Below are positions 14,373-64,000 of a DNA stretch of 64,000 nucleotides, one piece after another. The position numbers were made by a program, and so were the translations under genes. Each line of letters starts with the position of its first letter. Within the stretch, counting starts at the first letter, position 1. The notes below the pieces were generated by a model that was given only the letters and a program-made list of their open reading frames with translations, was not told where the DNA came from and did no database searches. This stretch comes from Planctomycetota bacterium (GTDB lineage Bacteria > Planctomycetota > UBA8742 > UBA2392), in the NCBI GenBank assembly GCA_020638675.1, contig JACKID010000001.1, positions 2,125,537-2,189,536 on the forward strand, given 5' to 3'.

Positions 14373-14397
14373 CACCCGGCTTCGATGGCTGCTTTCG

Positions 14398-14424
14398 AGC
14401 CCCCGCGCACTTGCGGGGGCTTTT
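14398..14424 (+). terminator. Rho-independent terminator
   Basis: AGCCCCCGC-GCACTT-GCGGGGGCT followed by TTT, 25 nt after the lipoprotein stop. Confidence 0.75.
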
Positions 14425-14528
14425 GACTTGGCGGAAGGCTCGCCCTGTGCCAATCGTTCACAACATGCCGGGTGTTCAGCTTTGGCCAGAGCAAGCTATA
14501 CAGAATTCGACTCGTGAGACGCTGCTAG

Positions 14529-20279: not shown

Positions 20280-20379
20280 GTCCTTCTCCAGTCCACGTTT
20301 CTGTCAGAGCGACTCCATATTGTACGCGATGGGATGGCAACCTGCTTCAGAATTCTACACGATGTAAGGCCACCCCCGA

Positions 20380-20407
20380 TTGACCGTCCAAGTCCGTTAT
20401 TCATACT
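20380..20407 (+). promoter_or_regulatory. Possible sigma70-type promoter for the dusB run
   Basis: TTGACC-N16-CATACT upstream of GGAG and GTG 20443. Confidence 0.35.
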
Positions 20408-20442
20408 TGGGGGCTAAGCCTTGCAGGCAGTGGAGTTACGGC

Positions 20443-39301: not shown

Positions 39302-39994
39302 ATGCCGAGCACATTTGCCACCGAACTCTTCGTCAAGCTATTCGGTGTGTTGCCGTCGGACCGCTCTCCCAAGCCCCCAGCGTCCAAGGCCCCAAAGACG
39401 GAAGTGCTGGTGCCCAACCGGCCGGCGGAGCCAGGTGGCAAGGTGATCTACCACGTGACGCCGCGCAAGGACGACCGCTGGAACATCCGCAAGGAAGGCG
39501 GGGCACGCCCATCGGCCGTCTGCACCAACAAGGATGAGGCAATCGAGCGCGCGCGTGAGATCGCGAAGAATGCGGGCTGGTCGCAAATCATCGTGCACAA
39601 CAAGGACGGCAAGATCGCGCAGGAGTTCAATTACGGCGACGCGTCCGGTCAGCGTGCGCCCAAGATTGAAGAAGAGTGGGAACCGGACGAGACCGATCGT
39701 GGTCTCGAAATGACCGAAATCCCGACGAACCACGAAACACGCCCTACCGCCAAGGTGAAAAAGGACTCGCCGGCGCCGAAAGCTACGCGCGCCGTGTGGC
39801 ACGTCACCCCGCGGGCAGAGGATGGGAAGTGGCGGGTGAAGCGGCAGGGCTCAAGCAAGGCGACGCGCGTGATCAGCAAGAAGGACGACGCGGTGAAGGT
39901 CGCCAAGGAACTCGCCAAGAACCACGGCAAGAGCCAGGTGGTCATTCACAAACAGGACGGCAACATCGCAGAGAGCTTCAAGTTCGACCCGTAG
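39302..39994 (+). CDS. Protein with two DUF2188-like domains
   Basis: YHVTPR..RWNIRKEG...KDEAIERAREIAK..IIVHNKDGKI and WHVTPR..KWRVKRQG...KDDAVKVAKELAK..VVIHKQDGNI. Confidence 0.85.
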   Translation: MPSTFATELFVKLFGVLPSDRSPKPPASKAPKTEVLVPNRPAEPGGKVIYHVTPRKDDRWNIRKEGGARPSAVCTNKDEAIERAREIAKNAGWSQIIVHNKDGKIAQEFNYGDASGQRAPKIEEEWEPDETDRGLEMTEIPTNHETRPTAKVKKDSPAPKATRAVWHVTPRAEDGKWRVKRQGSSKATRVISKKDDAVKVAKELAKNHGKSQVVIHKQDGNIAESFKFDP

Positions 39995-39997
39995 TCG

Positions 39998-41527
39998 TTA
40001 GCGTTTGCCGGACTTGATCTGGATGTCGTGCGCAATGGCCTGCGAGAAGAGCTTCGTGGCCCCCTGGGCGGCCGAGAGCTCCAGCGACGCGTCGCCTTGA
40101 ACCTGCGCGATGATCTGCAGCATCCCTTGCTGCACGCGGCACTTGATCGACTTCACGACGCCGCGCCGTCCGCGATCGAGCCCAAGGGCAATGCGCAGAA
40201 TGCCCGCCAGTATCCGCACCTGGTGCTGGCCCTTCGGATCAAGCTCAGCGAAGTGCCGGTGACGTTCCTTGGGTGAGCCGCGCCGGCTGTAGCGGGCCGT
40301 AAGCCCGATGATCTCGACTTCCCGGTCTGTCACGCCGCGCAGCCCGCCACCTCGAATCAGCTGGTAACTGATGTGTTCACGGTCCAGATAATTCATGCCG
40401 CGGCCGACGTCATCCAGCAGCGCCGACGTCTCGAGAAGCTCACGGTCGCGTTTGGCAAGTCCATGCAGGCGCTTGGTTGCGTCGAACAGGTTCACGGCCA
40501 ACTTGGCGAGATGTTCCGACCTCTTTGTGTCAGCCCCCGCGAGCTGGACCAGCTGCCGCGCACTTGCGAGCCGCACGTTGGGCGGCGGCCCCTTTGCGCG
40601 ATGGACCTTCTCCAGTTCGTGCAGCAGAACGCCTTCCCGCAACGACGCACCGCAGAGCTGGAACTTGTCTGACTTCACCAGTCTCAGCGCCGTTTCGAGC
40701 ACGGCCGCCCCGAAGTGGATCACGTCCGCGCGGCGTTCGTCGATACCGGGCAGCCGCGTCCGCGCCGCCGCGTCCACGCTGAGCAACTGGCCTGCCAGGT
40801 CGCGAATTTCAGACGCATGAATTTCATAGCCGTTGAGCGAGCCCCACGGATCGCGCCCGCGCAATCGCAGGCAGGTCAGGCCCAGCGTCATGTGGGAGCC
40901 GGACGTGCCGATCACCACGTCGATCCCGCGCTTTCGGATGCTTTTCAGCAGCGGCCCGGCCGTGTCGTTGATCAGGCGCATCAGCTTGTTGCGGGACTTT
41001 CTCGATAACGGGTCTTCGGCGCCGAACATGTCACGCAGGCGCTGCACGCCAAGCGGCACGCTCTTGCTGACGATCAGGCGGTTGGCCGTCCCGTACATGA
41101 TTTCAAGGCTGCCTCCGCCGAGGTCCAGGATGAGACCCTTGCGCTTTTCAAGATCTGTCGCGTGGCGCACACCACGATAGATCAACTCAGCTTCTTCGAC
41201 CCCGCCAATGAGCCTTGGCTCAATTCCGGCCTGCGACTTCACTTTCTTGAGGAACTCCTGTCCGTTGCTGGCCTCGCGAACAGCGCTCGTGGCCACGGCG
41301 AGTGTACGGTCCACTTTCAGTCGCTTGCACAGCGTCGCAAAGCGCTTGAGCGCCTCGAGGGCATTGTGCATCGGGACAGGCATCAACCGCCCGGTCTTGA
41401 ACGCACCGGCGCCCAGCTTCACCCGTTCCCGCTCACGATCGATGACCTGGAAAGAGTGCGGCCCGTAGGTGTCGGCCACGATCATGTGGACCGAGTTCGA
41501 GCCGATGTCGATTGCCGCGAGTCTCAC
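39998..41527 (-). CDS. ppx: Ppx/GppA exopolyphosphatase
   Basis: AAIDIGSNS, ATSAVREASN, EEAELIY, DLGGGSLE; C-terminal HD-like region. Confidence 0.93.
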   Translation of the reverse strand: MRLAAIDIGSNSVHMIVADTYGPHSFQVIDRERERVKLGAGAFKTGRLMPVPMHNALEALKRFATLCKRLKVDRTLAVATSAVREASNGQEFLKKVKSQAGIEPRLIGGVEEAELIYRGVRHATDLEKRKGLILDLGGGSLEIMYGTANRLIVSKSVPLGVQRLRDMFGAEDPLSRKSRNKLMRLINDTAGPLLKSIRKRGIDVVIGTSGSHMTLGLTCLRLRGRDPWGSLNGYEIHASEIRDLAGQLLSVDAAARTRLPGIDERRADVIHFGAAVLETALRLVKSDKFQLCGASLREGVLLHELEKVHRAKGPPPNVRLASARQLVQLAGADTKRSEHLAKLAVNLFDATKRLHGLAKRDRELLETSALLDDVGRGMNYLDREHISYQLIRGGGLRGVTDREVEIIGLTARYSRRGSPKERHRHFAELDPKGQHQVRILAGILRIALGLDRGRRGVVKSIKCRVQQGMLQIIAQVQGDASLELSAAQGATKLFSQAIAHDIQIKSGKR

Positions 41528-43635
41528 GCCGCTCCGCCTGTACCGCCCAGTCTCGCGGCCAGGGTCTCCTGCGCTGCCAGGCGCGGATTATCGCCCGGGT
41601 TGCAACGCACCCATGTGCCATCGGACTGCAGCAGCCAAGCCTGTACGTTGTCGGACAGCGGTATGTCAAGGCATTCTTCAATCACGCGCGCACGCAACGC
41701 GGGGTCAAGGATCGGGAAGCAGGTCTCCACGCGGCGGTGCAGGTTGCGCGACATCCAGTCCGCGCTCGCCGCATACAGGAAGTCATCATTGGCACCGAAT
41801 GAGTACACGCGGCTGTGCTCAAGGAAACGCCCGATGATGCTGCGCACGCGAATGCTGTCTGACACACCCGGCACCCCCGGGCGAAGGCAACAGACGCCGC
41901 GGATCAACAGATCAATCGGCACTCCCGCAATGGACGCGAGATAGAGCGCTTTGATGACCCCGGGGTCTGAGAGGCTGTTCATCTTCGCCCGGATGCGGCA
42001 GGGCTTTCCATCGCGGGCGAGTTGCGCTTGCTCATTGATACGCTGGATGACCATGTCATTCAGTGTGAAGGGCGAATGGTAGATCTGCTTCATGCCCGGC
42101 GTCTCGCCGGGGCTGGTGAGTTCGCGGAAGAGCTTGTGGACGTCCGTGCAGATTTCTTCGTTCGCTGTCATCAGGCTGAGGTCGGTGTAGGCCCGGGCCG
42201 TACCGGTGTGATAGTTGCCGGTTCCCAAATGGACGTAGCGCTTGAGCCGCCCGTCTTCCCGACGCAGCAGCATCATGATCTTGCTGTGTGTCTTGTAGCC
42301 GACGACGCCGTACACCACCTGTGCACCCGCGTTCTGCAGGCGTGTAGCGAGGTCGATGTTCGCCGCCTCGTCAAATCGGGCGCGCAGCTCAACACACGCA
42401 GTCACTTCCTTGCCGGCGCGCGCCGCGTCGAACAACGCTTCGGTCACCTCCGAGACCACCCCGGTTCGATACAGCGTGCCCATGATGGCAACGACGTTCG
42501 GATCGTTGGCGGCCTTGCGGATAAAGTCCAGTACGGGGCCGAATGACTGGTATGGATGGTGCAACAACACGTCGCGCTGGCGAAGAACGTCGAAGATGTC
42601 GGTGCCGGCGGCCAGCTCCTTGGGAACGCCAGGCTGAAATGGCGGATACTTCAGGTCCGGTCGATCAGCGAGTTCATACAGTTTCATCAAACGGTTCAGG
42701 TTCACCGGCCCGTTCACCTGGTACAGGTCCTCTTGTCCCAGGTGGAAATGATCGAGCAGCATATTGGCGATCTCGGTCGGACAATTCTCCGCGACCTCCA
42801 GCCGAACAGCGGCGCCGTAGTGGCGTCGAGGAAGCTCGAAGCGCAAGGCCTCAGCGAGGTCTTCGACTTCTTCCTCGTCAACGAACAGGTCGCTGTTGCG
42901 AGTGACACGGAACTGGTATGCGCCCTTCACATTCATGCGCGGGAAGAGTTCACCAATGTTGTGGTGGATGACGGCCGAGAGCAGGACGAAGTCGTACGGG
43001 CCCGCCGAAACTTCCCGCGGCATACGAATCACACGCGGCAGCAGACGCGGCGCCTGGACAACGCTGATGCCGCTGTCACGGGCGAAAGCATCCGGGCCCT
43101 CCATCAGCACGACAAAATTGAGGATCTTGTTCAGTACGTTCGGGAATGGGTGCGACGGATCAAGCCCGATCGGCGTCAGCAGCGGTTGGACTTCGCGCCG
43201 AAAGTAGTCAGCGGCCCACGCCGCCTGCTCCTCGCTCCATTCGGTACGTCGGAGAATGCGGATGCCGTTGTCCGCCAGCTTGGGAATCAGAACATCGTTG
43301 AACACGCGATACTGCTCGGCGACGATCCCGCGGCTTGTCTCGTGAACGCGCGCCAGCATGTCCAGCGGACGAACTTCGTCCGGGCCGGAAACTTCCACAC
43401 CCGCCGCCGCCTGCTGCTTCACACCGCTTACACGGATCTCGAAAAACTCATCCATGTTGCTGCACGAGATGGTGAGAAAGCGCAGCCGCTCCAGCAGAGG
43501 CACGGTTTCATCCGCCGCCATGGCCAACACGCGGCGATTGAACTCCATCAGCGAGAATTCGCGGTTGAAGTACAGGTTCGCGTCGCCGGGCTCGACAGCG
43601 GGTTTTCGATCACTGGCTGCGTTCATGGCGTTCAT
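41524..43635 (-). CDS. ppk1: Polyphosphate kinase 1
   Basis: YFNREFS, NMDEFFEIRV, HPFP, LLHHPYQSF, ELRARFDEAAN, KTHSK, GRFLEHSR, SADWMSRN. Confidence 0.97.
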   Translation of the reverse strand: MNAMNAASDRKPAVEPGDANLYFNREFSLMEFNRRVLAMAADETVPLLERLRFLTISCSNMDEFFEIRVSGVKQQAAAGVEVSGPDEVRPLDMLARVHETSRGIVAEQYRVFNDVLIPKLADNGIRILRRTEWSEEQAAWAADYFRREVQPLLTPIGLDPSHPFPNVLNKILNFVVLMEGPDAFARDSGISVVQAPRLLPRVIRMPREVSAGPYDFVLLSAVIHHNIGELFPRMNVKGAYQFRVTRNSDLFVDEEEVEDLAEALRFELPRRHYGAAVRLEVAENCPTEIANMLLDHFHLGQEDLYQVNGPVNLNRLMKLYELADRPDLKYPPFQPGVPKELAAGTDIFDVLRQRDVLLHHPYQSFGPVLDFIRKAANDPNVVAIMGTLYRTGVVSEVTEALFDAARAGKEVTACVELRARFDEAANIDLATRLQNAGAQVVYGVVGYKTHSKIMMLLRREDGRLKRYVHLGTGNYHTGTARAYTDLSLMTANEEICTDVHKLFRELTSPGETPGMKQIYHSPFTLNDMVIQRINEQAQLARDGKPCRIRAKMNSLSDPGVIKALYLASIAGVPIDLLIRGVCCLRPGVPGVSDSIRVRSIIGRFLEHSRVYSFGANDDFLYAASADWMSRNLHRRVETCFPILDPALRARVIEECLDIPLSDNVQAWLLQSDGTWVRCNPGDNPRLAAQETLAARLGGTGGAA

Positions 43636-52136: not shown

Positions 52137-52727
52137 CTAGAGCTTCTCAGGCAGCGCGCTGAACGGCGTCGGGACCTCGGCCGGGTGCAGCAGCTCCAGA
52201 ATCGCGTAGACACAGTTCACCGCGGGCGCCGCCGCTGTCGTATACAGCGAAGCAAGGCCGTTCAAGGTCTGCATCACCAGGCGCACCGGATCAAACACGC
52301 TGCGTCGCGTGGAGCCCTTCACCACTTCGCCGTCGTGCACTGCATCCGCCACGGAATAGAGCACGGATCCCTTGGGAAGCCCGCGTTCGTGGAACAACTT
52401 CTGCAGGTGCCGCTCACGCTGCTCGAGCGACTTGTCGAGTTGTGCGGGTACGCTGAAGGCATTGGTCAATCGATCGACGACTTCGGCCCAGGTGACGTTG
52501 CGCGTCGGCACGAATGAACGCCAGCCGTTGAGGCGCGCAATCATGCCTTTGCGATCCGCGTCGATGATGGCGGCGGCCTGTTTTTCCGCGTCGCCTGCCA
52601 GCGCCCTTGAAAAACTGAAGTCGAGGTGCGAAGCGAAATTTTCGCGCACCATGGCCGGCTGAGCGATCAGTACTTCCAGTGGCCGTCGCCAGCCGGAGTC
52701 TTCTACCTTGCGTACATCGGTCGACAT
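52137..52727 (-). CDS. Hypothetical protein
   Basis: 196-aa ATG ORF fills the gap and is collinear with neighbours; no motif recognised. Confidence 0.55.
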   Translation of the reverse strand: MSTDVRKVEDSGWRRPLEVLIAQPAMVRENFASHLDFSFSRALAGDAEKQAAAIIDADRKGMIARLNGWRSFVPTRNVTWAEVVDRLTNAFSVPAQLDKSLEQRERHLQKLFHERGLPKGSVLYSVADAVHDGEVVKGSTRRSVFDPVRLVMQTLNGLASLYTTAAAPAVNCVYAILELLHPAEVPTPFSALPEKL

Positions 52728-52795: not shown

Positions 52796-53986
52796 CTAGG
52801 CCCGCGCGCGGGAGACCTCGGCCCGTACGGTATCAACCCACGCGTACAGCCCTGCCATCTGTTGATGGAAGTCGTGGGTGTGACCATCCAGTGGATTCTT
52901 GAAGAACGGCGCCAGTTGGGCGAGCATCCCGGATTCTCCCCGCTGCCAGGCGACGCTGACCAGACGCACGAGGTCGAGCACCAGCGGCGCGGCAAGCGCG
53001 CTGTCGCAACCCTGCCATGTGAACGTCATCGTCATCGGCGTGCCGAGGAAACCCTGGAAGTGAATCAGGTCCCATGCGGTCTTCCAGTCGCCGAGGCTGG
53101 GCACGTACTGGATGTCCGTCTTCACGAACGCGCCGCCGAGCATCTCGCGCAGCGCGGCGTCCTTCTGGCGCAGCTTGCTGTCTTTGCTGGCCGGCGCATC
53201 AAGCACCGCGCCGTCGTTGTTGCCGAGGAAGTTGTTACCCACCCAGCTCATCACCTTCAGGTTGCGGGCAAGGAACATGGGGCCGAGCACAGTCTTCAGC
53301 AGCGTCTCGCCTGTCTTGCCGTCCTTGCCCGCGTGTGGAAGTCGCGAGTCGCGAGCGATCTTGCGCAGTGCGGGCAGCTCTGAGGCCTGGCTTGGCGTGA
53401 AGTTGATGTAAGCGCATCCTTGGCGCAGCGCCGCGAGGGCGGCCAGCAGCGTGCCGGTGCAGAATCCCCCACCTGCCTTCGGCAGGGCCTTCATCAGGTC
53501 CTCGGGCGTGTCGAAGTCCGGAGTCTCGGCAAAGTACGGCTCCGTGCTGCAGAGATTGACTACGACCACGCGGTCGAGGTTGTGATCGCTGCGGAACCGC
53601 GCCAGCCGCTCTTCAATACGCGTAAGCTCGGCCAGATAGCCGCCTTCCGGGACGGAGCCGAATACGAACCCCTTCACCGTGTGAATCTGTTTGTCCAGCA
53701 CCTCAAGTTCGCCGCTGAGCTCCCGCGCGAGTTGCTCCGGGAGAATGCGCGCCTGCCCCAGCTCCACAGCCTTTTCGTGCAGCGGCGTGTTCGACACTTC
53801 GGCACCGCCGAACACCATGTCCTGCAGACCTGCCAGCGGCAGCCCCTTGAACTCCGGTCCGTCCGTCACCATGCCGGTGGCGGGCATGCGCCCCTGGGCA
53901 ATCGCTGTCGCGCCGACCATGGCCGTTGTCGCGACGTTGCCCCGCGCCCCGATGAAGTAGATGCCGATGCGGTTGCTGGTTGCCAA
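52796..53986 (-). CDS. ino1: Myo-inositol-1-phosphate synthase
   Basis: GARGNVATT, VVVNLCSTE, YINFTPS, GKDGKTGETLLK, NFLGNNDG, GDWKTAWD, WQGCDSALAAPLVLDL. Confidence 0.9.
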   Translation of the reverse strand: MATSNRIGIYFIGARGNVATTAMVGATAIAQGRMPATGMVTDGPEFKGLPLAGLQDMVFGGAEVSNTPLHEKAVELGQARILPEQLARELSGELEVLDKQIHTVKGFVFGSVPEGGYLAELTRIEERLARFRSDHNLDRVVVVNLCSTEPYFAETPDFDTPEDLMKALPKAGGGFCTGTLLAALAALRQGCAYINFTPSQASELPALRKIARDSRLPHAGKDGKTGETLLKTVLGPMFLARNLKVMSWVGNNFLGNNDGAVLDAPASKDSKLRQKDAALREMLGGAFVKTDIQYVPSLGDWKTAWDLIHFQGFLGTPMTMTFTWQGCDSALAAPLVLDLVRLVSVAWQRGESGMLAQLAPFFKNPLDGHTHDFHQQMAGLYAWVDTVRAEVSRARA

Positions 53987-53987
53987 G

Positions 53988-55070
53988 CTATCTCTCCTGC
54001 AGCTCGTTTAGTGCCTTGATGGCGCGCTCCGCCATTGCACGACGGCGCGGCGTTTGTGCCGCGATTGCCTCGCTGCTCCTCGCCGCGGCTGAACGAATCA
54101 CGGGCATTGCGACCAGGTCTTCTCGCTTCACGCTTGTATCGAACGTTCCGTCCTTGCCGGAGTCTTCCGATCCCGCCGGCTTGCCGTTCTCCAGCGCCGA
54201 AGCCTTGCCCCTCAGCGCTGCAGCGCCCGCATCCAGCTTGTCTGCCAACTCCGCGCGCGCCGCGGCATCGAGCGGTGCGGCGTCGGGCAGGTCGCCGGGA
54301 GCCAATCCGGGAGCAGACTCGCCCCCGTCCTTCAGGGCGTTCCTGGCATCCGTCAGTGACCTGTTGCGCTGTTCGTCTGTTGCAGCGGTATCTCGCAGCA
54401 CGGCCGCAGTGCGCTTGAGCTGCGTAGCCGTCTCCTTCATGCCGAGCGCCTTGCGGTACGCGTCCCGGTCGCTTGCGGCGCGGCTTCCGCCGACGTCGAC
54501 ACTTGACCAGGAATCCGACTTGCCTTGCGCCTCCGTGCCGGCGACTGCACCGCCATCGACCGGGCGCTCGGCGCTGACGACAGCCGCGAACAGTACACCA
54601 GATGCCAGCGCCAGCAGCGGTACTGCAACCAGCCTGCGAGTCGGGATCAACACGGGCGCGGGAGACCGTACAGCCTGCTTGAGTTCCTCCGCTGCGCGCG
54701 CGAGCAGGGGGCGATAGAAGACGTTGCCCTCGACAACGCGCAACGCCGCGGCCAGGGCGCCCGTATCGTGCGGCAAGCGTGCCTCAAGTGCCAGTGCGAC
54801 CTCCTGCAAGCCCGGCAAACGGTAGCGGCGCAGCTCATAGCCGACGCCGAGCAAGAAGCCCGCGGCCCCGCCCAGCGCGATGGAGCCGATGCCGCCCGTC
54901 GTCGCGAACAGCAACCGCGGCAGCAGGTCAAGGAACACCACCGAGAGCCCGAGCGCTATGGCTCCCCCTGCAATGCCCGTAAATGCGGCTCTCGCCAGCT
55001 GACGCGCGATCAGCCGCAGCGCGACGGCGCGCAGCTCGGCTTCCAGTTCGGCTCGGCTGGTCAGGGGCAA
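53988..55070 (-). CDS. Hypothetical membrane protein (N-terminus resembles DUF4175-type proteins)
   Basis: Two N-terminal TM helices, VALALEARLP...ALAAAL, a third TM, then a helical region. Confidence 0.6.
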   Translation of the reverse strand: MPLTSRAELEAELRAVALRLIARQLARAAFTGIAGGAIALGLSVVFLDLLPRLLFATTGGIGSIALGGAAGFLLGVGYELRRYRLPGLQEVALALEARLPHDTGALAAALRVVEGNVFYRPLLARAAEELKQAVRSPAPVLIPTRRLVAVPLLALASGVLFAAVVSAERPVDGGAVAGTEAQGKSDSWSSVDVGGSRAASDRDAYRKALGMKETATQLKRTAAVLRDTAATDEQRNRSLTDARNALKDGGESAPGLAPGDLPDAAPLDAAARAELADKLDAGAAALRGKASALENGKPAGSEDSGKDGTFDTSVKREDLVAMPVIRSAAARSSEAIAAQTPRRRAMAERAIKALNELQER

Positions 55071-55073: not shown

Positions 55074-55895
55074 CTAGTCCTTCTTCTCTTCCTTCTTCTC
55101 TTCGGGCCACGGCTCAAACAGCAAAGTGACCTGCGGGGTTACTCCGCGTACTGTCTGCGGAATCCCGTCGGCTTCAGGATAGGGTGAGTAAATGTCCGGC
55201 ACGTAGCCGTCGTCGCGGTCATTGTCGAGCACGCATGCCGAGTCGCGCCACATGGCGATCAGGTTGCCCTTCATGTCGGCCTCAAACAGCGAGCGGTTCA
55301 GCTCCGCGCGAAACTGCTCAAAGCTTCCGGTGAAGATGAAGCCGACCTTGTCTGGGTGGGCGTTGTTCTGGTGGTCCCACAACCAGTCCTCAACCGGAAC
55401 GACGGTTTCTTTGCCCGTCTTGCTGTGGAAGAAACGAACGCTGATTTTCACACGATCGCCGACAGGCTTGTCGAGGTAGCCGCGGCCGGAGCGCTTTTCT
55501 TTGCCCTCGGCCAGCCCGACAATCTCAAGCGCACGCTTCAGGTGCAGCCCGCTGCCGGCACTGGCAAACAGGCTCTCGTGCGTGTTGCCGCCGGGAGACA
55601 CAAGCAGATACTCCAGTGGGCGCGTCTGTGAACCCAGCAACCACGCGTCCATCTCAACGACGCGCTTGGCCGGGTAGGCACGCAAGCCACCCTCAAATGC
55701 GACGTAGTCGGCATCCTTCTGCTTGGGTGGATCGGGCTGTGCTTCGGCCTCAGGCTCAGGCTCGGCGGTGTCCTCATTCCCGGCCTGGATCGCCTCGGTC
55801 TCGCCCGTGAACGCATGCACAACGCCATAGACGCCGGCCGCAGCTACGGTCAGGAACAGGGGCAACCAGGCGAGTATGCGCAGCTTCATCATCAT
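55074..55895 (-). CDS. Exported protein, possibly YdjY-domain family
   Basis: Signal/TM leader; PLEYLLVSPGGNTHESLF and IFTGS segments recalled as YdjY-like; family not verified. Confidence 0.55.
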   Translation of the reverse strand: MMMKLRILAWLPLFLTVAAAGVYGVVHAFTGETEAIQAGNEDTAEPEPEAEAQPDPPKQKDADYVAFEGGLRAYPAKRVVEMDAWLLGSQTRPLEYLLVSPGGNTHESLFASAGSGLHLKRALEIVGLAEGKEKRSGRGYLDKPVGDRVKISVRFFHSKTGKETVVPVEDWLWDHQNNAHPDKVGFIFTGSFEQFRAELNRSLFEADMKGNLIAMWRDSACVLDNDRDDGYVPDIYSPYPEADGIPQTVRGVTPQVTLLFEPWPEEKKEEKKD

Positions 55896-55981: not shown

Positions 55982-56605
55982 CTACCTGTCGTACACCCCC
56001 AGGGAGTCGGAGTACTTGAACATCAGTGGAAGCTGCGGTTTGTCCTGCGCCGCTCGGTGCTGGTTGACGATTGTGGCCGCATCGAGGGCGGTGCTGACGA
56101 ACATCCACGGCGCTGTCCCGCTACGTGCGCCCACCGTCGGATCCTTGGCGAACGAGATCTCGACCTTCTCGATCTTTGCCCCGCTGCGGTCTATGTAGCC
56201 TTCGACTGCATCGACCAGGCTGTTGCAAACCAGCGCGTACTTGGCCTTCTTTTCACGGATCTGGACGGCCGAATCCGCTGGAAAGATCACAAGCTGTTCC
56301 AGGGTCGCGTAGCTGTTTTCGACAGTTCGGCGACCGCGCGCATCGATCGCGATCACGTACTGGTTGGCTTGCGCGCCGTCGTCCCAGACGCAGTAGATCG
56401 TCACTTGCTCCTTGGGCGGGGAGGGCTTGTCGAGCATCCCGTCTGTCTTCGGCAGATCGGCCCGCATGTTGTTTTCATCCACGCGAAAGCGCGTACACAG
56501 GATGAAGAAGATCAGCAACTGGAACGTCACATCGATCATGGGTGTGAGGTCCGGTGCGGCCTTGTCTTCTTCTGTCTGACGCCGCTCTTTTCGTTGCCTG
56601 CTCAT
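55982..56605 (-). CDS. ExbD/TolR-family protein (long type, copy 2)
   Basis: PDLTPMIDVTFQLLIFFILCTRF TM with the conserved Asp. Confidence 0.88.
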   Translation of the reverse strand: MSRQRKERRQTEEDKAAPDLTPMIDVTFQLLIFFILCTRFRVDENNMRADLPKTDGMLDKPSPPKEQVTIYCVWDDGAQANQYVIAIDARGRRTVENSYATLEQLVIFPADSAVQIREKKAKYALVCNSLVDAVEGYIDRSGAKIEKVEISFAKDPTVGARSGTAPWMFVSTALDAATIVNQHRAAQDKPQLPLMFKYSDSLGVYDR

Positions 56606-56614
56606 TGGTTTCCC

Positions 56615-57106
56615 CTAGTTCGTGCGCTGGTCCTTCAGGACCGCAATCTTGACTTTGTAGAGCCGCACCGCGGCCATCAGTTCGATCAGCTTTCCAAACT
56701 CGGACGCGGGGCAGCGGGCGTCGCAGCGAACTACGACGACGTTCTCGCTGATGCCGTCAGGGTCGAGCCCCGGCTTGCCCTCCGCAGGCGCAGTGACTGC
56801 CGCCTCTCGCGCGAGAATTGCGCGCATCTCGTCGCTGCTGCGTGGTCTTGAGTCGCCGTAGCAGAACCAGCCGAAGGACGCCTCTGATGCTCCCACTTGC
56901 GCGATGTGGACCGTGAACAGTCTCTCGGGCCCCAACGGCGTATCCCCGGCCGTGAGACTGTCCGGCAGGCGCAGATCGACCGTCTCCTGGGACGTGATGT
57001 GTGAGACGACCAGGAAGAAGATGATGAGCTGGAACGTCACGTCGATCATGGGAGTCAGATCGAGCGTGCTCTCTTCTTCGCCGCGGCTGCGACGTTCGTT
57101 TCTCAT
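56615..57106 (-). CDS. ExbD/TolR-family protein (short type, copy 2)
   Basis: LDLTPMIDVTFQLIIFFLV; VVVRCDARCP periplasmic motif. Confidence 0.88.
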   Translation of the reverse strand: MRNERRSRGEEESTLDLTPMIDVTFQLIIFFLVVSHITSQETVDLRLPDSLTAGDTPLGPERLFTVHIAQVGASEASFGWFCYGDSRPRSSDEMRAILAREAAVTAPAEGKPGLDPDGISENVVVVRCDARCPASEFGKLIELMAAVRLYKVKIAVLKDQRTN

Positions 57107-57153
57107 GGCGAATCCTTGAAGATTCGCCCCGGGATGAGATAGCGACTTAAACG

Positions 57154-57185
57154 AACCAGGCGAGGGAAAGTTCCCTCGCCTGGTT
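57154..57185 (-). terminator. Strong hairpin between the two exbD pairs
   Basis: Perfect 14-bp stem AACCAGGCGAGGGA-AAGT-TCCCTCGCCTGGTT. Confidence 0.65.
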
Positions 57186-57201
57186 TCAATTCTTGGACGA
57201 A

Positions 57202-57819
57202 CTAGCCGCCGTAGGCGCCCAGCGAGTCGGCGAACTTGAACGTCACCGTCAGGGGCTCAAGCCCCTTCTCTACGCGGTTCTTGTTCACCATCGCCGATGC
57301 GTCGATGGCGAGCGAAACGAACATCCAGGGCGCTGTACCGGACGCCGCGCCCTGCATGGCGTTGACGGCGAACGAGATCTCAAGCTTCTCAATCTTCGCG
57401 CCGCTCTTGTTGATGTACGCCTCGGTGGCAGCAACCAGGTTGTCGAAGATCTGCCCGTAAAGGGCCTTCTTCTCGCGGATCTGGGCCTGGCTGTCGCCGG
57501 GGAAAATCACCATCTGTTCCAGCGTCGCGTAGCTGTTCTCGACGGGCTTGCGGCCTCGCGCGTCGATAGCGACGACATAGCTGTTGGACTTGGAATCCGG
57601 CTTCCAGTCGCAATAGATCGTGATCTGCTCTTTGGGTACTGAAGGCGTGCTCTGCAGACCTTCGTCCTTGGGCAACTGCACCTGGTGATTGCGTTCGTCT
57701 ACTTTGAAGCGGGTGCACAGGATGAAGAAGATCAGCAGCTGGAACGTCACGTCGATCATCGGCGTGAGGTCCGGCGTTGCCTTCTCGTCGTTGTTCCGTT
57801 TCTTGCGTGCTCGTGCCAT
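57202..57819 (-). CDS. ExbD/TolR-family protein (long type, copy 1)
   Basis: PDLTPMIDVTFQLLIFFILCTRF; colinear with 55982-56605. Confidence 0.88.
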   Translation of the reverse strand: MARARKKRNNDEKATPDLTPMIDVTFQLLIFFILCTRFKVDERNHQVQLPKDEGLQSTPSVPKEQITIYCDWKPDSKSNSYVVAIDARGRKPVENSYATLEQMVIFPGDSQAQIREKKALYGQIFDNLVAATEAYINKSGAKIEKLEISFAVNAMQGAASGTAPWMFVSLAIDASAMVNKNRVEKGLEPLTVTFKFADSLGAYGG

Positions 57820-57839
57820 GGGATTCTCCGGACCGCGAA

Positions 57840-58349
57840 CTAGTCGAGTCGCTGGTCCTTCAGGATTGCGATCTTGATTTTGTACATCATCAGGCTTGCC
57901 ATCAGCTCAATCAGTTTGCCGAAGTTCTCGGCCGGTGCGCGAGCGTCGCAACGGACAACCACCATGTTCTCGCTGATGCCATCCGGCCCGATACCCAACA
58001 AGTCTCGGTCCGGATCGACGATTGCAGCTTCCTTGGTCAGGATGCCGCGCATTTCGTCGATGCTGCGCGGATTCGCATCGCCGTAGCAGAACCAGCCGAA
58101 TTCATCGGGCATGGCGGTGTCGGACGACTGATTGATCGGCGCAATGTGCACCGTGAACAGCTTCTTCTCCTTGGGGTCCGGCTCGTTCGCGGCAAGCGCG
58201 TCCGGCAGGCGCAGATTCACGTTTTCCTGCGACGTGATCTGCGATACCACCATGAAGAAAATGATGAGCTGGAAGGTCACGTCGATCATCGGCGTGAGGT
58301 CGACTTCGACGCCTTCCGAAGACCGCATGGATTTACGTTTCTTTGCCAT
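57840..58349 (-). CDS. ExbD/TolR-family protein (short type, copy 1)
   Basis: VDLTPMIDVTFQLIIFFMV; VVVRCDARAP; colinear with 56615-57106. Confidence 0.88.
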   Translation of the reverse strand: MAKKRKSMRSSEGVEVDLTPMIDVTFQLIIFFMVVSQITSQENVNLRLPDALAANEPDPKEKKLFTVHIAPINQSSDTAMPDEFGWFCYGDANPRSIDEMRGILTKEAAIVDPDRDLLGIGPDGISENMVVVRCDARAPAENFGKLIELMASLMMYKIKIAILKDQRLD

Positions 58350-58413
58350 TGGTATTTCTCCGGGCCGGGCGGAGGCGATGAGCCCCCACCCACCCTAGGA
58401 TCTTGTTCGTTCG

Positions 58414-59160
58414 TTACTGCTGTCCGGCGTACGCGGCGACCGTTTCAATCATGTCGTCAGCCACCAAGCCGATCGAGGTGCCGATCGAGCCGACCTTGTT
58501 CTTGAAGTACCAGTAGAACACAAGGCCCGGCATGGCGATGATCAGACCGAGAACCGTCGACAGCAGCGCGAGCGCGATACCACCGGCCACCATCTTCGGG
58601 TTCACCTGGCCGCCCGGGGCGTTCTCAATCTTCGCGAAGGCCATAACCATACCCGTCACTGTGCCGAACAGACCCATCAGGGGGCCTACAGACGCGCACA
58701 GCGCGATCGGCGAGATATGGAATTCAAGCTTGCCTTGCTCAGCGTCGCCCATGCTTACGGCCGCGTCCTTGACGCTTTCCGGGCCGAACTGCATGCGGTT
58801 CAGGCCGGCACCGACGATGCGCGTCAGGTAGTTCGGTGCGCTCTCGCAGTACTGAAGCCCGCCTTCAAGGTCGCCCTCGTCGATGTAGTTTTGCAGGGCA
58901 CCGATGACTTCCGGCGGCACGATCTTGTCGCGGCGCACGTTCACGAAGCACTCGATGATCCAGCCGAACATGAACACCGAAACAAGGATGATCATCAGCT
59001 GGGTGATGATGCCGAACGCACCGCCCGGAATGCCGAGGATCTTCTCGCCGAGCGAGTAGCTGCCTTCGCCTTCCTGGGCGAACAGCGCGGGGGCCAGCAC
59101 AGCGCCCGCCGCAAACAGCGCAACCACAGCCATGGCCTTCTTGGAAATCTGCAAGTTCAT
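58414..59160 (-). CDS. MotA/TolQ/ExbB proton-channel protein
   Basis: GPLMGLFGTVTGMVMAF, VAGGIALALLSTVLGLIIAMP; start ATG 59160. Confidence 0.92.
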   Translation of the reverse strand: MNLQISKKAMAVVALFAAGAVLAPALFAQEGEGSYSLGEKILGIPGGAFGIITQLMIILVSVFMFGWIIECFVNVRRDKIVPPEVIGALQNYIDEGDLEGGLQYCESAPNYLTRIVGAGLNRMQFGPESVKDAAVSMGDAEQGKLEFHISPIALCASVGPLMGLFGTVTGMVMAFAKIENAPGGQVNPKMVAGGIALALLSTVLGLIIAMPGLVFYWYFKNKVGSIGTSIGLVADDMIETVAAYAGQQ

Positions 59161-59309
59161 TGGGATGTTCTCCTGCCCTTTACTGATTGGGTCGACCCCG
59201 CCGCTCGGGGTCGCCGCATCAATGGTTTGTTTGGACAACGTCAGAAACGGGGTGTTCGGCAAATGGTTCAAGAAAATGCGTTATTTGCCCACTCCGGTTG
59301 TGCCACCTT

Positions 59310-60677
59310 TTAGTCACCCTTGTACGTGTTGATGATCTTCTGGATCCCCGGAAGTGACTCATCTTCCGCGGCCTTGGTCTTGCCCAGCAGGCTGGTCAGC
59401 TCGGACACGTACTTGTCCGCCAGTCTTGCGTAGTTTTCGGAGATCAGGGCCACCTTCACCATTCTGTCGTTGCGCTTGACCTCGACCAGCTCGCCCTTGT
59501 TCAACTCGGCAAGCTGGGCACAGGCGTTGGCCGCCCCAAGAAGCGCCTTGCTGCGAATTTCGTCGTCCGCGTTGAACAGTGACAGCGACGTGCTGAAGTT
59601 CTCGAGCGCCTCGGCCCACTCTTCCGCCTTCTTCGCGGTCGCCGCGTTCACCAGGCCCTGCCCCAGGTAGCTGCCGGCCGTGAGGTAGGCGAGGTCGGGG
59701 CTAATCCAGTCCGCACGGGGCTGCCATGGGCGATCCGGGTTGGGCTTGTGAGCCTCCTTCCAGTTCTTGACGGCTTCGTAAAAGCGCGCCTGGGCGCCGC
59801 GGGTGTCTCCCTCAAGGATCTGCATGAAGCCGACCTTCAACTGCGCCTCGTAGGAAGCGCGCGAAGGCTTGCCGCCCTGCTTCTTGAGAGCAACGCGGGC
59901 AAGATCGTCGTAAGCGTCGCGGGCGCCCTTATAGTCCTTCTGTTCTTCGGCGTAGCGGGCCGAGGCGCGGAGCGCGCGAAGGCCCCAGTCGAAGTATTCC
60001 TTGTCGCCGGAATTGGACGCCAGATTCTCCGTCAGTTCCATCAGCGGCTTGAACGCCTTGTCAGCTGCCGTCTTGGCGTCGCCTTTCTTGAGGTATGCCA
60101 GACCGAGAGCCTCGAGTGCATCGAGATAGAACCGGTTCAATCCGCCTGCGTTGGTGACAGCCTTGCCCGAGACCTTCGAGGCGTAGTTCACGCGGGGCAC
60201 GACACTCTTGTCGTAAAGGTTCTCCGCCTTCTCGCAGTCCTTGAGATAGTCTTCAAGCTGTTTGATGGCTTCGTTCCAGTCATTCTGCAGGTAGTACCCC
60301 ATCGCCGCGTAGTACTTTGCCGAGAGCAATATTCCCTTCCAGGCATCATCGAAGCCCGCAGGCGCCTTCATATTGAGGACAGCCTGCGCATCCTGGATCA
60401 AACGCCCCGACTGCCCGCCGGCCAGCTTGCGGCTGAGTCCGTTGAACTCGTCCATGGCGTTGCCGTTGTAGCGCACTGTGTCGGCTTCCCACGGCTTGAC
60501 CTTGGTGCCCGGGCGGCCGCGCTCTGACTCCCAGATGATGCCGGACACGGTCTCGGCCTGGACGTCATAGGCGGTGCTGGCCTTGCCGTTCTTGGTCTGG
60601 ATCACGCCGCCCGCTGCCGCGGACAGAGCGCCCGCAAACAGAGCTGCAACAGTGGTTGCCAGAATCAGGTTCTTCAT
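59310..60677 (-). CDS. Secreted alpha-helical (TPR-like) protein
   Basis: Signal peptide MKNLILATTVAALFAGALSAAA; Ala/Tyr/Leu helical pairs (AMGYYLQNDWNEAIKQLEDY, ALGLAYLKKGD). Confidence 0.75.
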   Translation of the reverse strand: MKNLILATTVAALFAGALSAAAGGVIQTKNGKASTAYDVQAETVSGIIWESERGRPGTKVKPWEADTVRYNGNAMDEFNGLSRKLAGGQSGRLIQDAQAVLNMKAPAGFDDAWKGILLSAKYYAAMGYYLQNDWNEAIKQLEDYLKDCEKAENLYDKSVVPRVNYASKVSGKAVTNAGGLNRFYLDALEALGLAYLKKGDAKTAADKAFKPLMELTENLASNSGDKEYFDWGLRALRASARYAEEQKDYKGARDAYDDLARVALKKQGGKPSRASYEAQLKVGFMQILEGDTRGAQARFYEAVKNWKEAHKPNPDRPWQPRADWISPDLAYLTAGSYLGQGLVNAATAKKAEEWAEALENFSTSLSLFNADDEIRSKALLGAANACAQLAELNKGELVEVKRNDRMVKVALISENYARLADKYVSELTSLLGKTKAAEDESLPGIQKIINTYKGD

Positions 60678-60701
60678 GGTCTGTCTCCTTGCCGCCAGGG
60701 C

Positions 60702-63700
60702 CTATCCGCCCGTGGAAAGCTTGATGTCGTTCTTCTTGCAGAGATCGGCGATCTTCTTGGCGTAGTCTTTCAGCCGCTTGAGATACTCCTTCATCTCCGT
60801 CGGCAGATAGGTCGCCTCCAGGCTGCTTTCGCTCATGGCGGTGTCGTAGCCTGATTGCGAGTACGTCTTCACGCCGCCATCCTTCAGCGCTTCCACGCCC
60901 ATGTCCTTGTTGCCGTACTTCTCAAGCCACAGTGCGGTCAGCTTCAACCAGGCCTCGAGGTTGTCGCGGAAGTCGCCGCGGAACTGGTACTCGCTCAAGA
61001 GCTTGAAGCTGGCCCAAATACGCAGGTGGATCTGCGAAGCTTCGAACAGGTAGCCCGCCTGGTCGGCCGGTACGGACTGCAGCACGACCTTGTCGCCGTC
61101 CTTCTTCGGCTCCAGCGTGGGCGTGTATTGATCCACATAGGCCGGCCACTTGATCTTCACGTCGCCGGTGGTTGCCTCGTGCAGCAGCAGGAAGACCTCG
61201 GCCATCGTTCGGCCGACGTAGAGGTAGTAGTCTTCAATCGCCTTCTGCAGGTCCGTGTCTTCCGGGCGATTGCTGGTCACCCACTTGTACTTCTTGCCGC
61301 CGACCTCGTTCGCGTCGCGAACAAGGTTGAAGCACCAGCAACGGCGCATCAACAGCGCAGACTTCTTGAGATTCGCGACGTCGCCGGTTTCCTTGTAGAG
61401 CTCTAGGTAGGCCCTTCCGAGCTGGTACTTCAGCTCGTACTCGTTACCGCTGCCGGTCTTGCCGATGGTCTTGGTGCGCTGATCAACCGGGACCTCGGTC
61501 TCCTTGCCCCACACCTTGTCGCCGCCGAAGCGTTCCATGTAGGCGCTGAGGTACTTGACCGTGTTGTTCCAGTCGCGGATGCGGAAGTACTGCGTGCCGA
61601 GAAGCTTGACCGACTTCTCTTCCAGCCCTTCCGGGCCGCCCTTGCCCATGCGCAGGCGGTACTCTTCGTAGTACTTCAGGATGCGCGTGGTGGCCGGTCG
61701 GGCTCGCTCCAGCACGTCCTGAGACTGGGACTCCAGGAAGTTGCCGAAGTCATAGATGAACAGCGTGCCGGTGAAGTAAGCCAACGCGTCCGTCGCGACA
61801 TCGATAAATGACAGCAGGTCGGCGTACTGGCTGACCTTTGCGCCGTCCGACTCCTTCTTGGCTTGCTCGGCCTCCATCAGCGTGCGGATCTTGTCGACGA
61901 TCTCGTAGTCCGTGCCGCCCGATACCGCCTTCTGCACTTCATCGCGGATCGACTTGAAGGCATCCTTCTTGATCTGTGTGTTGTATTCACCGCGCACGGC
62001 CTCGGCCCAGCGCTTGGGGTACTCCTCAGCGAGTGCCTTCCACTTCTGTGAGACGGCCTCTTTCAGGTCCGGCAGGTACGTGCGGATGTCGTCGTTCTTC
62101 GGGTGGTCCAGGAACAGGTCGAGCATCCAGCGCTGCCAGAAGTGCTCGGCCAGGATCATGCGCTGCTCGTGCGTGCCCTTGGCCTTGGCCAAGCGTTCGC
62201 TGTCTTCCTTGAAGCCGGCGATCGGGTTTCCGTCGCCGTCCTTCGCGGCCGGGTTGATGCGCTCGAACGAGTTCTTCTTCATCAAGTTGGCGTAGGACGT
62301 GAGCTTCGAGGCCGCGAGCGCCAGTGCGCTGATCTTTGGGGTCAGCTTCTCGTTGAGGATCGCGTACACGTTGCTGACCATGTACTGGATCTGCTTCTCG
62401 TCGTCCGGGAAAGCCTCGACATAGGCCTGGTACACGGCCTCGGCCGCGTCCTCGTCCTTGGCTTCGGACAAGGCGCCGAAGCTGAGTCGGAGCGAATACT
62501 TCTTGTACTCCGGGCTGTCGGCGAGGTGCGTGCCGAACCACTTCCAGTACGGACGCAGGATGGAGAGCGCCAGCGTCCGCTCCTGGGCCTTCAAATTCTC
62601 GGCAACTTCATCCGAGAGGCTCTTTGGTGGATTGCGCAGCAGGTAGCAAAGATCGTACGCCGCGTAGCCCATGCGCTTCATGTCCGGGTCGGGCTCGCCG
62701 GTGCCGGACGGGTTGTCGCGTGACCATTTGGCGTTGTGAACCTGGGCAATCGCGCCGATACAGTCGGCGATCGTCGGGTTCTCGATCGCGCTCAGCGGCT
62801 CCTTGATCTCTTCCCAGGCCTTCTGGGATTCGAACAGGAAGTACTTCTTGTAGTAGTAGACAGCCTTGTTCCAGTTCACCAACTGGTCCGGCGTATTATT
62901 GTCGAGGATCGCGTCCCAGTGCGGCTTGGCCACGCCCGCAATCAGGCCCTCAGGCAGACCTGAAAGATCGGTTTCGTGCCGGGCGATCTGTTCCTGGTAG
63001 AACTCCGGGTCCTCGATGTCGCGGATGTACTTGTCCTTGTCGACTTCGCCGCGGCGGTTGTTGCGCGAGGCGTTCGGATCCTGCGAAACGTTGTAGTAGG
63101 CCTTGGCGCCGATGTAGAGCGCGATGTGGAAGCTGCGGAAGATGCGCGGCAGGTTCACCATCCGCACGGCCGCCTGGTGGTACTTCTTCTGCGCGTACAG
63201 GTCGTTGGCGGTCTTGTAGGCCAGCTCCATCTTGGCGCGGTCGCCTGCAAGCTCGGCCTTCACTTCGTCGGCTTCCTTGCTCAGCTTCTGGAAGTAGCGG
63301 TTGTTCGGCTCGCCATATTCCTTGTGGATAAGGAAGCTGGCGTGACGCGCGTACTGGTTCGCCATTTCGCCCGGGAAGCCGTTGAGTGACTTGCCGTCCT
63401 TGATCAGGTTGCAGCGGTTCTGCATGTGGGCGGGCACCGGCTGGTCGGGGTCGAATTTCTGCTGGAAGTACACGGTACGGAAGCAGCCTTCGCGGAACGC
63501 GAGCGCCGCGTCAAGGAACCGCCACATGCCGGAGTACATCTCGGCAATCCGCACGAAGCAGGCCGGGCCGTAGGTCTCAAATGTCTTCGTGTCACCGCAG
63601 GCCTGCAGCAGTGACTGGTACGCCTGGATGTTCTTGAGAATGACCGACACCGGATTGGTGTCGAGCTCGGCGTACACGGTACCGGCGCACTTGAAGCGCA

Positions 63701-64000
63701 GCTCGTTGTCGAGGTTGTCGCGCGTTGCGATATCCGCAAGCACGGACAGCGCCTGGCGACGGAAAGATGCATCGCGATCCTGCGCCAGCTTGAACAGCAG
63801 GTCGATGGCGCCCGCGATCTTTGCCTCGTCGCCCAGCTTGATCAGCGCGCTGATGCGGTACAGCTGGAAGCGCTTGAAGTAGAAGTCCAGCTCTTTGAAA
63901 CCGCCGTACGACGCGAAGGCCTCGCCGTACATGTCGATGGTCTTCTGCAGGTTGGCGGGGTCATAGTCGAGCTCAGTCGTCAGAAGCTCGGCTGCGCGCA
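60702..64000 (-). CDS. Very large alpha-helical (TPR-like) protein; 5' end beyond the window edge
   Basis: The frame stays open from 63932 to the window end (RAAELLTTELDYDPANLQKTIDMYG); over 1090 aa of helical repeats (LGTQYFRIRDWNNTVKYL, YQLGRAYLELY). Confidence 0.8.
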   Translation of the reverse strand, partial: RAAELLTTELDYDPANLQKTIDMYGEAFASYGGFKELDFYFKRFQLYRISALIKLGDEAKIAGAIDLLFKLAQDRDASFRRQALSVLADIATRDNLDNELRFKCAGTVYAELDTNPVSVILKNIQAYQSLLQACGDTKTFETYGPACFVRIAEMYSGMWRFLDAALAFREGCFRTVYFQQKFDPDQPVPAHMQNRCNLIKDGKSLNGFPGEMANQYARHASFLIHKEYGEPNNRYFQKLSKEADEVKAELAGDRAKMELAYKTANDLYAQKKYHQAAVRMVNLPRIFRSFHIALYIGAKAYYNVSQDPNASRNNRRGEVDKDKYIRDIEDPEFYQEQIARHETDLSGLPEGLIAGVAKPHWDAILDNNTPDQLVNWNKAVYYYKKYFLFESQKAWEEIKEPLSAIENPTIADCIGAIAQVHNAKWSRDNPSGTGEPDPDMKRMGYAAYDLCYLLRNPPKSLSDEVAENLKAQERTLALSILRPYWKWFGTHLADSPEYKKYSLRLSFGALSEAKDEDAAEAVYQAYVEAFPDDEKQIQYMVSNVYAILNEKLTPKISALALAASKLTSYANLMKKNSFERINPAAKDGDGNPIAGFKEDSERLAKAKGTHEQRMILAEHFWQRWMLDLFLDHPKNDDIRTYLPDLKEAVSQKWKALAEEYPKRWAEAVRGEYNTQIKKDAFKSIRDEVQKAVSGGTDYEIVDKIRTLMEAEQAKKESDGAKVSQYADLLSFIDVATDALAYFTGTLFIYDFGNFLESQSQDVLERARPATTRILKYYEEYRLRMGKGGPEGLEEKSVKLLGTQYFRIRDWNNTVKYLSAYMERFGGDKVWGKETEVPVDQRTKTIGKTGSGNEYELKYQLGRAYLELYKETGDVANLKKSALLMRRCWCFNLVRDANEVGGKKYKWVTSNRPEDTDLQKAIEDYYLYVGRTMAEVFLLLHEATTGDVKIKWPAYVDQYTPTLEPKKDGDKVVLQSVPADQAGYLFEASQIHLRIWASFKLLSEYQFRGDFRDNLEAWLKLTALWLEKYGNKDMGVEALKDGGVKTYSQSGYDTAMSESSLEATYLPTEMKEYLKRLKDYAKKIADLCKKNDIKLSTGG

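Follow-up and report, generated by a model that had tools for sequence, protein, structure and literature searches.

Akkermansia needs its mul genes to accumulate mucin in internal compartments (PMC12418764) and to take up glycans into the periplasm (PMC13174399). One of them, mul1A (Amuc_0544), is a mucin transport gene (PMC12570417) that stands, in the rows of the supplement table of PMC11480725 covering this region, beside genes for an ExbD/TolR protein (Amuc_0546) and a MotA/TolQ/ExbB protein (Amuc_0548), with hypothetical proteins between them. MUL2 consists of Amuc_1099-1102 together with the adjoining secretin gene Amuc_1098, and includes a pilin-like protein (PMC13174399). Here we describe a gene cluster from a Planctomycetota bacterium, located at the end of a stretch of 64,000 nucleotides (nt) that is referred to throughout as the window (GenBank assembly GCA_020638675.1, contig JACKID010000001.1, positions 2,125,537 to 2,189,536 of the forward strand). 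The conserved cluster unites a PilM-platform/secretin module, two exported solenoid proteins, and a set of ExbB, short ExbD (ExbD_S), and long ExbD (ExbD_L) proteins. We propose, with a probability of roughly one half, that its proton-driven stator energizes an envelope machine that is built around a secretin and transports a polymer, by analogy with MUL1 plus MUL2 of Akkermansia.

A 5:2 architecture is established for the stators ExbB-ExbD, TolQ-TolR, and MotA-MotB. Operons with several ExbD genes occur in Xanthomonas (exbD1/exbD2) and in Bacteroidota (exbB-exbD-exbD-tonB), and the Myxococcus proteins AglR, AglQ, and AglS comprise one TolQ-like and two TolR-like subunits, accompanied by the TPR proteins GltD (~1200 aa) and GltE (~480 aa).

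Extent and conservation of the gene cluster

On the minus strand, the final 12 kb of the window form an unbroken series of open reading frames (ORFs), all in the same orientation; every cluster gene described below for the window lies on this strand. A previous sequence-only reading of this DNA had recognized here a helical protein of >1090 aa, a secreted helical protein of 455 aa, ExbB, and a short and a long ExbD occurring twice. All seven ORFs were present on the minus strand at the coordinates it had reported, and the ORF calls, Pfam searches, and AlphaFold2 (AF2) models confirmed what they encode. The unit proved to be larger, extending downstream to ~52137 and upstream past 64000, such that the cluster covers ~22 kb with 14 to 16 co-oriented genes, of which the window contains the motor half. 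From the gene for the giant helical protein to the last co-oriented gene, p196, the intergenic gaps measure, in order, 24, ~149, 64, 20, 95, 9, 86, 3, 1, and 68 nt. No convincing internal terminator was detected in the cluster, the promoter and terminator scan having yielded nothing above chance. Window proteins were scanned with Pfam as a set of 40 ORFs, from which a few smaller ORFs were left out.

Gene content past 64000 was taken from syntenic relatives, chiefly loci L002 (90% identical) and L003 (48% identical), both of which are wholly syntenic with the window. Upstream of the giant, the relatives encode a DUF6687 protein, a PilM/PilN-like fusion, two proteins designated p359 and p652, and a TPR-secretin. 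By scanning one genome per species with a profile of the giant, we recovered 19 loci, all from Planctomycetota metagenome-assembled genomes (MAGs), and mapped them by tblastn with 16 reference proteins. All loci that were long enough showed the same order, namely (DUF6687), PilM-like, p359, p652, secretin, giant, 455-aa protein, ExbB, ExbD copies, YdjY, p360, inositol-1-phosphate synthase, (p196). The order held from loci whose giant protein is 90% identical down to those at ~36%, and the genes outside the block varied. Moreover, comparison with L002 revealed purifying selection in all eleven window genes, with dN/dS (ratio of nonsynonymous to synonymous substitution rates) ranging from 0.008 (ExbB) to 0.20 (p360), demonstrating that they are real genes rather than chance ORFs.

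A PilM-like platform and a secretin precede the motor genes

In the PilM-like protein (688 aa), a transmembrane (TM) segment and a periplasmic part come after an actin-like domain. It scored 155 bits against TIGR01175 (PilM), above the cut-off of 133, and its best NCBIfam match was the Amuc_1101 family (3.5e-58), at 198 bits and thus far below the equivalog cut-off of 650. The secretin, a lipoprotein of 896 aa with N-terminal TPRs, matched the Pfam Secretin family (3.5e-28, 98.7 bits), and its best NCBIfam match was the Amuc_1098 family (1.1e-31; 110 bits versus an equivalog cut-off of 750), ahead of MshL, PilQ, and GspD. Its length of ~900 aa and its build of TPRs plus secretin domain agree with Amuc_1098 as described (PMC4960237). 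The two genes between them encode bitopic inner-membrane proteins, p359 (~359 aa) and p652 (~652 aa). We considered p359 as a homologue of Amuc_1100 or PilO and rejected it, as both single-sequence and profile searches of the PDB, where the structure of Amuc_1100 is presumably deposited, were negative. A single-sequence PDB search with p652 was likewise negative, and the domain scan of this protein yielded faint EF-hand matches only. NCBIfam searches with p359, p652, and the DUF6687 protein returned nothing, and Pfam searches matched none of the three to a related family.

Among described systems, Akkermansia MUL appears to be the nearest, offering a strong functional parallel in which detectable relatedness is limited to PilM and the secretin. 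Both hosts are members of the PVC superphylum (Planctomycetes, Verrucomicrobia, and Chlamydiae), and MUL2 likewise has PilM, two small proteins, and a TPR-secretin of ~900 aa in the same order. In MUL1, ExbB and ExbD adjoin uncharacterized proteins that are needed for polymer transport, and no TonB is annotated among Amuc_0543-0548 in the rows of the PMC11480725 supplement table that cover these genes. The two systems differ in that MUL1 and MUL2 are unlinked loci, whereas here both modules are contiguous in one cluster; in that no homologues were detectable in Akkermansia for the middle proteins, the giant, or the 455-aa protein; in that up to four ExbD proteins occur here; and in that DUF6687 stands in place of the pilin-like Amuc_1102. 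The sequence-only reading had assigned the motor to an uncharacterized envelope machine and had held that a match to an already characterized system would speak against it. Its motor idea holds in outline, and an envelope machine is indeed apparent. The parts of this machine can now be named, since directly past the window's edge the syntenic loci all encode a PilM/N-like protein, a pair of bitopic proteins, and a TPR-secretin. The objection about a characterized counterpart applies in part: the layout parallels the genetically characterized Akkermansia MUL1/MUL2, but the helical proteins have no detectable homologues outside Planctomycetota.

The PilM/secretin module could alternatively belong to a fiber machine resembling the type IV pilus, with ExbBD merely neighbors and the ATPase, platform, and pilin genes encoded elsewhere. 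PilM exceeds the TIGR01175 cut-off, the secretin matches PilQ, MshL, and GspD, and Akkermansia MUL2 includes a pilin-like protein (PMC13174399). The cluster also shares with the type IVa pilus genes PilMNOPQ a PilM domain fused to a TM segment (as in a PilM-PilN fusion), bitopic proteins, a secretin, and a lipoprotein bearing a linker. However, neither the 10 kb upstream of the giant in L002 and L003 nor the scanned window ORFs contained a pilus ATPase (PilB/PilT), a platform protein (PilC), a prepilin peptidase, or a pilin. Matches to PilO or PilP were also lacking, and the cluster includes a proton-driven stator. A pilus also leaves the invariant placement of the solenoid pair and the ExbBD genes directly after the secretin unexplained. 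We regard this explanation as improbable.

A giant solenoid and its 455-aa partner

The giant alpha-solenoid is represented in the window by the C-terminal 1098 of its 1363 aa (60702..64000), as judged from the ORF and in-frame read-through. Its reading frame is still open at 63998, placing the start, as read, past the window edge. The full-length form is the protein P0001 (1363 aa), of which the first 265 aa, including an N-terminal signal peptide (MPGVVAGLVIVFVLSLFAGSAHA, followed by RD, with cleavage at AHA-RD), correspond to DNA outside the window. An AF2 model of the fragment shows an all-alpha solenoid of ~45 helices (mean predicted local distance difference test [pLDDT] score, 89.5), for which Foldseek returned generic TPR/HEAT solenoids only. 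A profile of the giant family found no match among PDB sequences.

The partner, a secreted helical protein of 455 aa (59310..60677), is TPR-like according to weak TPR matches, carries a signal peptide, and is encoded 24 nt 3' of the giant gene. Homologues of this protein stand directly after the giant even in the most distant relatives (blastp, 3e-20 to 8e-5), and since the partner has been retained beside giants of only 24-27% identity, the two constitute an old pair. An exhaustive phmmer search with the giant against 1.84 billion representatives identified 27 relatives, of which all named ones derive from Planctomycetota MAGs, and a profile search with the 455-aa protein identified 37 proteins, all of those with a source name being from Planctomycetota. 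Relatives outside this phylum were sought with ExbD_L, the giant, the 455-aa profile, and the genome scan with the giant profile, none of which returned any. Judged by these sequence comparisons, the 455-aa protein appears to be an obligate partner of the giant, and the pair appears to be confined to Planctomycetota.

Two of the distant loci have further neighbors. In L024, a Wza-like polysaccharide export protein (Poly_export/SLBB) is encoded at 9681-11264 (+), two genes downstream of the giant/partner pair, a hint that more than one kind of outer-membrane channel can be served by the solenoid pair. In L025, the region 19794-24344 (+) near the pair encodes a protein of 528 aa that has a Laminin_G_3 match and a weak motif for prepilin N-methylation and is followed by a 1813-aa protein; the former is a possible pilin-like link, in this one occurrence only.

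The sequence-only reading had likened the locus to the AglR-AglQ-AglS motor, and the solenoid pair bears on whether the cluster encodes a surface-transport or gliding machine of the Agl-Glt/Nfs kind, moving cargo or an adhesin along the envelope. The layout resemblance stands: a single ExbB of the TolQ type and two ExbD classes of the TolR type are preceded directly by a large helical, TPR-type protein of >1000 aa and a periplasmic helical protein of ~450 aa, much as AglR/AglQ/AglS have GltD and GltE for partners. It is a likeness of layout only, as the phmmer search with the giant found no myxobacterial protein, its 27 relatives with a name being all from Planctomycetota. Moreover, no TonB-like GltG/GltJ and no Glt-type outer-membrane beta-barrels were detected; instead, a secretin with a PilM-like platform is found, and the secretin is the only outer-membrane protein identified. 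A gliding or surface-transport function is therefore, in our estimate, an outside chance.

ExbB resembles TolQ within a broader stator family

The ExbB/TolQ-type proton-channel subunit lies in an ORF at 58414-59271 that is open to a TTG at 59271. An ATG at 59160 yields a protein of 248 aa (58414..59160), as called in relatives, and is most likely the true start. The N-terminus of the protein contains a signal-like segment. Its match to Pfam PF01618 (MotA_ExbB, 3.3e-25) scored 88.7 bits against a cut-off of 22.9. The best solved relative is TolQ (4.8e-13), TolQ and ExbB structures matching at 5e-13 to 3e-8; the best NCBIfam match is also TolQ, at 69.8 bits versus a cut-off of 221, and all TolQ/ExbB matches fall below their equivalog cut-offs.

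This affinity to TolQ raises the question of a Tol-Pal-like system for envelope integrity or division, in which a helical/TPR protein would correspond to CpoB and the YdjY lipoprotein to Pal. Apart from the closest solved homologues and the best NCBIfam match of ExbB both being TolQ, the position of a lipoprotein gene after the ExbD genes conforms to such a system. Nevertheless, TolA, TolB (beta-propeller), and OmpA-like Pal domains were not detected in the cluster with Pfam or NCBIfam, all TolQ/TolR matches are far under the equivalog cut-offs, and Tol-Pal has nothing that corresponds to the secretin/PilM module. We consequently view a Tol-Pal role as very improbable.

Two ExbD classes share a transmembrane aspartate

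Four ExbD genes follow ExbB in the window, encoding ExbD_S1 (169 aa; 57840..58349; Pfam ExbD, 4e-15), ExbD_L1 (205 aa; 57202..57819; 1.1e-11), ExbD_S2 (163 aa; 56615..57106; 2.4e-14), and ExbD_L2 (207 aa; 55982..56605; 1.1e-10), each of which scored 42-56 bits against PF02472 (gathering cut-off, 25.4). As the sequence-only reading had stated, all four keep the TM aspartate, which lies in the motif DLTPMIDVTF, and so does every ExbD copy examined in related loci. ExbD_S1 is of canonical length and covers positions 3-125 of the 128 in the Pfam ExbD profile. The S and L families aligned in HHalign over residues 1-67 only, that is, the cytoplasmic N-terminus, the TM helix, and a few residues beyond. 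What follows in ExbD_L is a periplasmic alpha/beta domain of ~140 aa that is unrelated to the S domain (AF2 pLDDT, 79.8) and that gave no match to solved structures at E<1e-3. An assignment of this domain as an RNase-H-like or eRF1 piece was rejected, because the best Foldseek match (E 3.9e-3, TM-score ~0.3) was not significant. Our search for ExbD_L identified 157 homologues, all of those with a source name being from Planctomycetes MAGs. Thus, HHalign and the domain scans agree with the earlier description of two different ExbD kinds with large helical periplasmic partners in a locus lacking TonB. The proteins conform to the stator family in comprising a MotA_ExbB channel subunit and a single-pass ExbD with a TM aspartate, the L class being ExbD-like only at its N-terminus and TM helix, and the defining components of the Ton, Tol-Pal, and type IV pilus systems were not all found. 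Only 20 and 9 nt separate the genes within the S-L pairs, a tight spacing that fits an S/L ExbD heterodimer.

The two pairs have evolved differently. S1 and L1 are slowly evolving and were found in every complete locus. Most loci also have an L2-type gene, which is missing in L009 and L017, and S2 is restricted to the window and loci L002/L005, L004, and L007. Among the 19 related species, the ExbD layout is mostly S-L-L', with S-L in two, and S-L-S-L only in the nearest relatives of the window. Locus L009 (17406-17589) is without L2 even though its very close relatives L008 (17745) and L010 (17504) carry it, and this recent loss indicates that L2 is dispensable. Compared with L002, the nonsynonymous substitution rates (dN) of S2 and L2 are 7-8 times those of S1 and L1 (S2, 8 times S1; L2, 0.146 versus 0.020 for L1), with dN/dS values of 0.03 for S1 and 0.18 for S2; the second pair is nevertheless still constrained. 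We rejected a plain tandem duplication of S1-L1 as the general origin of S2-L2, since L2 occurs without S2 in most species and S2 occurs in one subclade. Given that S1 and L1 are present in all complete loci whereas S2 and L2 are patchy and fast-evolving, the conserved motor core consists of ExbB, S1, and L1, and we infer that S2 and L2 serve as accessory stator subunits in particular lineages and do not belong to the basic motor. The interchangeable subunit pairs suggested by the sequence-only reading are accordingly not borne out as a general property of the motor and represent at most a recent addition in one subclade, considering both the restricted distribution of S-L-S-L and the 7-8 times faster dN of the second pair.

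Transcript data are available for relatives of the host, whose lineage is uncultured and comes from activated sludge. Contigs of a wastewater metatranscriptome, with 90-95% identity, cover ExbB, S1, and L1 (57436-59153), and one contig of 853 nt spans both junctions. This provides weak evidence that ExbB, S1, and L1 are co-transcribed in a relative, DNA carry-over being possible. The same metatranscriptome contained no contigs over S2 or L2, which may only reflect their faster divergence in the sampled relative.

No TonB or TonB-dependent receptor is detected in the cluster

In none of the 40 scanned window ORFs did we find a TonB, TolA, or TonB-dependent receptor domain, in agreement with the sequence-only reading. 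Among the cluster proteins, we detected no TonB_C, TonB_2, or TolA match at E<=0.1 (upstream genes) or E<=0.01 (window genes), and neither the scanned window ORFs nor the syntenic flanks contained Plug or TonB_dep_Rec. That reading had also pointed to the sequence beyond 64000 as the place where a TonB might be found; inspected in relatives, this region showed the PilM-like/secretin module and no TonB domain at E<=0.1. A TonB hidden within the cluster was therefore rejected, with no Pfam or NCBIfam match for one. The YdjY protein was also tried as a TonB and rejected: its sole PDB match, at E 0.72, was to the Pro-rich spacer of TonB and reflects composition, and most of its orthologues are lipoproteins rather than TM-anchored proteins.

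These results have to be set against an ordinary Ton motor that has additional ExbD paralogues and for which TonB and receptors would be encoded elsewhere and the vicinity of the secretin would be incidental. In its favor, Pfam shows ExbB and ExbD_S to be canonical, tonB often lies apart from exbBD, two ExbD genes in one operon are a common arrangement, and distant relatives of the giant have no adjoining ExbBD. Like Ton systems, the cluster has MotA_ExbB and ExbD domains with the TM aspartate, ExbB followed by ExbD, and several ExbD paralogues. Unlike them, it has no detected TonB or receptor, one ExbD class carries an unrelated periplasmic domain that is not of the ExbD type, and the apparent outer-membrane partner is a secretin. 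Further, an incidental vicinity is difficult to reconcile with the same order of 14-16 genes in 19 species while the flanks vary, and with a solenoid pair that, in the syntenic loci, always lies between the secretin and ExbB. We hold an ordinary Ton motor to be unlikely.

Genes downstream of the stator set

The gene after ExbD_L2 encodes an exported YdjY-domain protein (55074..55895; NCBIfam ydjY_domain, 2.8e-20, above cut-off), which is present in every locus extending far enough. It comprises an N-terminal anchor, which in most orthologues has a lipobox Cys, then a linker rich in Pro and Glu and a well-conserved globular domain, making this tethered lipoprotein, comparable in build to PilP or Pal, a candidate connector. 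Located 3 nt further on, p360 (53988..55070) was identified from its ORF and synteny as a polytopic membrane protein of 360 aa with an Ala-rich tail and no family match; it is the least conserved member of the cluster, and is always present. The gene for myo-inositol-1-phosphate synthase (52796..53986; Pfam NAD_binding_5 and Inos-1-P_synth) begins 1 nt after the p360 stop and has the same position in all complete loci. The last co-oriented gene, p196 (52137..52727; 196 aa, from ORF and synteny), is kept in closer relatives only. A terminator-like hairpin follows it at 52123-52105, such sites being no more numerous than expected by chance.

Elsewhere in the window, two tandem genes at 4115-7966 (-) and 8135-11725 (-) encode secreted giants of 1283 and 1196 aa, each combining a subtilase S8 domain and a P-domain with several domains of the PKD/K319L-like and Big_9 types; they are probably extracellular proteases or adhesins. 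Two ORFs, at 11757-14453 (-; 898 aa) and 21471-23072 (+; 533 aa), had no Pfam family at E<=1e-4, and the latter lies directly upstream of a set of MlaE, ABC ATPase, and MlaD genes (23069-26006). A protein of 230 aa made up of two DUF2188 domains is encoded at 39302-39994 (+) and adjoins the polyphosphate pair ppx/ppk (39998-43635).

A working model for a stator-driven secretin machine

In the model that we favor, ExbB would form a pentameric proton channel surrounding an ExbD dimer, probably an S/L heterodimer, with the proton-binding aspartate contributed by both classes. In place of TonB, the periplasmic domain of ExbD_L and the two solenoids, perhaps together with the YdjY lipoprotein, would pass the movement of the stator on to the PilM-platform/secretin module. 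This movement may gate the secretin or may drive a large polymer (glycan, glycoprotein, or fiber) through it, and transport could be import or export. The division of labor would be the same as that suggested for Akkermansia MUL1 and MUL2, both of which are needed for mucin uptake.

Several observations weigh against a stator-driven secretin machine. The putative link between motor and secretin is drawn from conserved gene order. Part of this synteny may represent inertia rather than function, because the housekeeping inositol-1-phosphate synthase shares the conserved order. In distant relatives (24-27% identity), the giant/455-aa pair has no adjoining secretin or ExbBD; as these pairs stand alone, the coupling of motor and secretin may be lineage-specific, or the modules may merely be unlinked elsewhere. 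At the level of individual proteins, NCBIfam, Pfam, and PDB searches detected no likeness of p359 and p652 to Amuc_1100/1099 or PilO/PilP, searches with the giant and the 455-aa protein brought up no Akkermansia or myxobacterial protein, and the STN match of the secretin, at 28.1 bits, is just under the Pfam cut-off of 28.4. Finally, the genome could have a TonB gene at some other location.

A more specific version of the model is TonB-independent energizing of the outer membrane, in which the stator would drive or open the secretin via the ExbD_L domain and the solenoid pair for macromolecule uptake into the planctomycete periplasm, and S2/L2 would permit alternative stators. We advance this version tentatively, and consider it possible but doubtful. 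If it is true, TonB-independent energizing of a secretin would provide a physical account of the cooperation of MUL1 and MUL2 in Akkermansia.

For the entry of large glycans into the periplasm, Planctomycetota and Verrucomicrobiota do not seem, to our knowledge, to depend on the Sus/TonB-receptor systems known from Bacteroidota. The cluster described here, in which MUL1-like and MUL2-like modules are naturally joined with no TonB detected, offers comparative evidence for a stator and a secretin platform acting as one machine, and it supplies the periplasmic domain of ExbD_L, the solenoid pair, and the YdjY lipoprotein as candidate connectors between them. If our proposal is true, a secretin energized by ExbBD would mean that the 5:2 motor family has been put to a new use.

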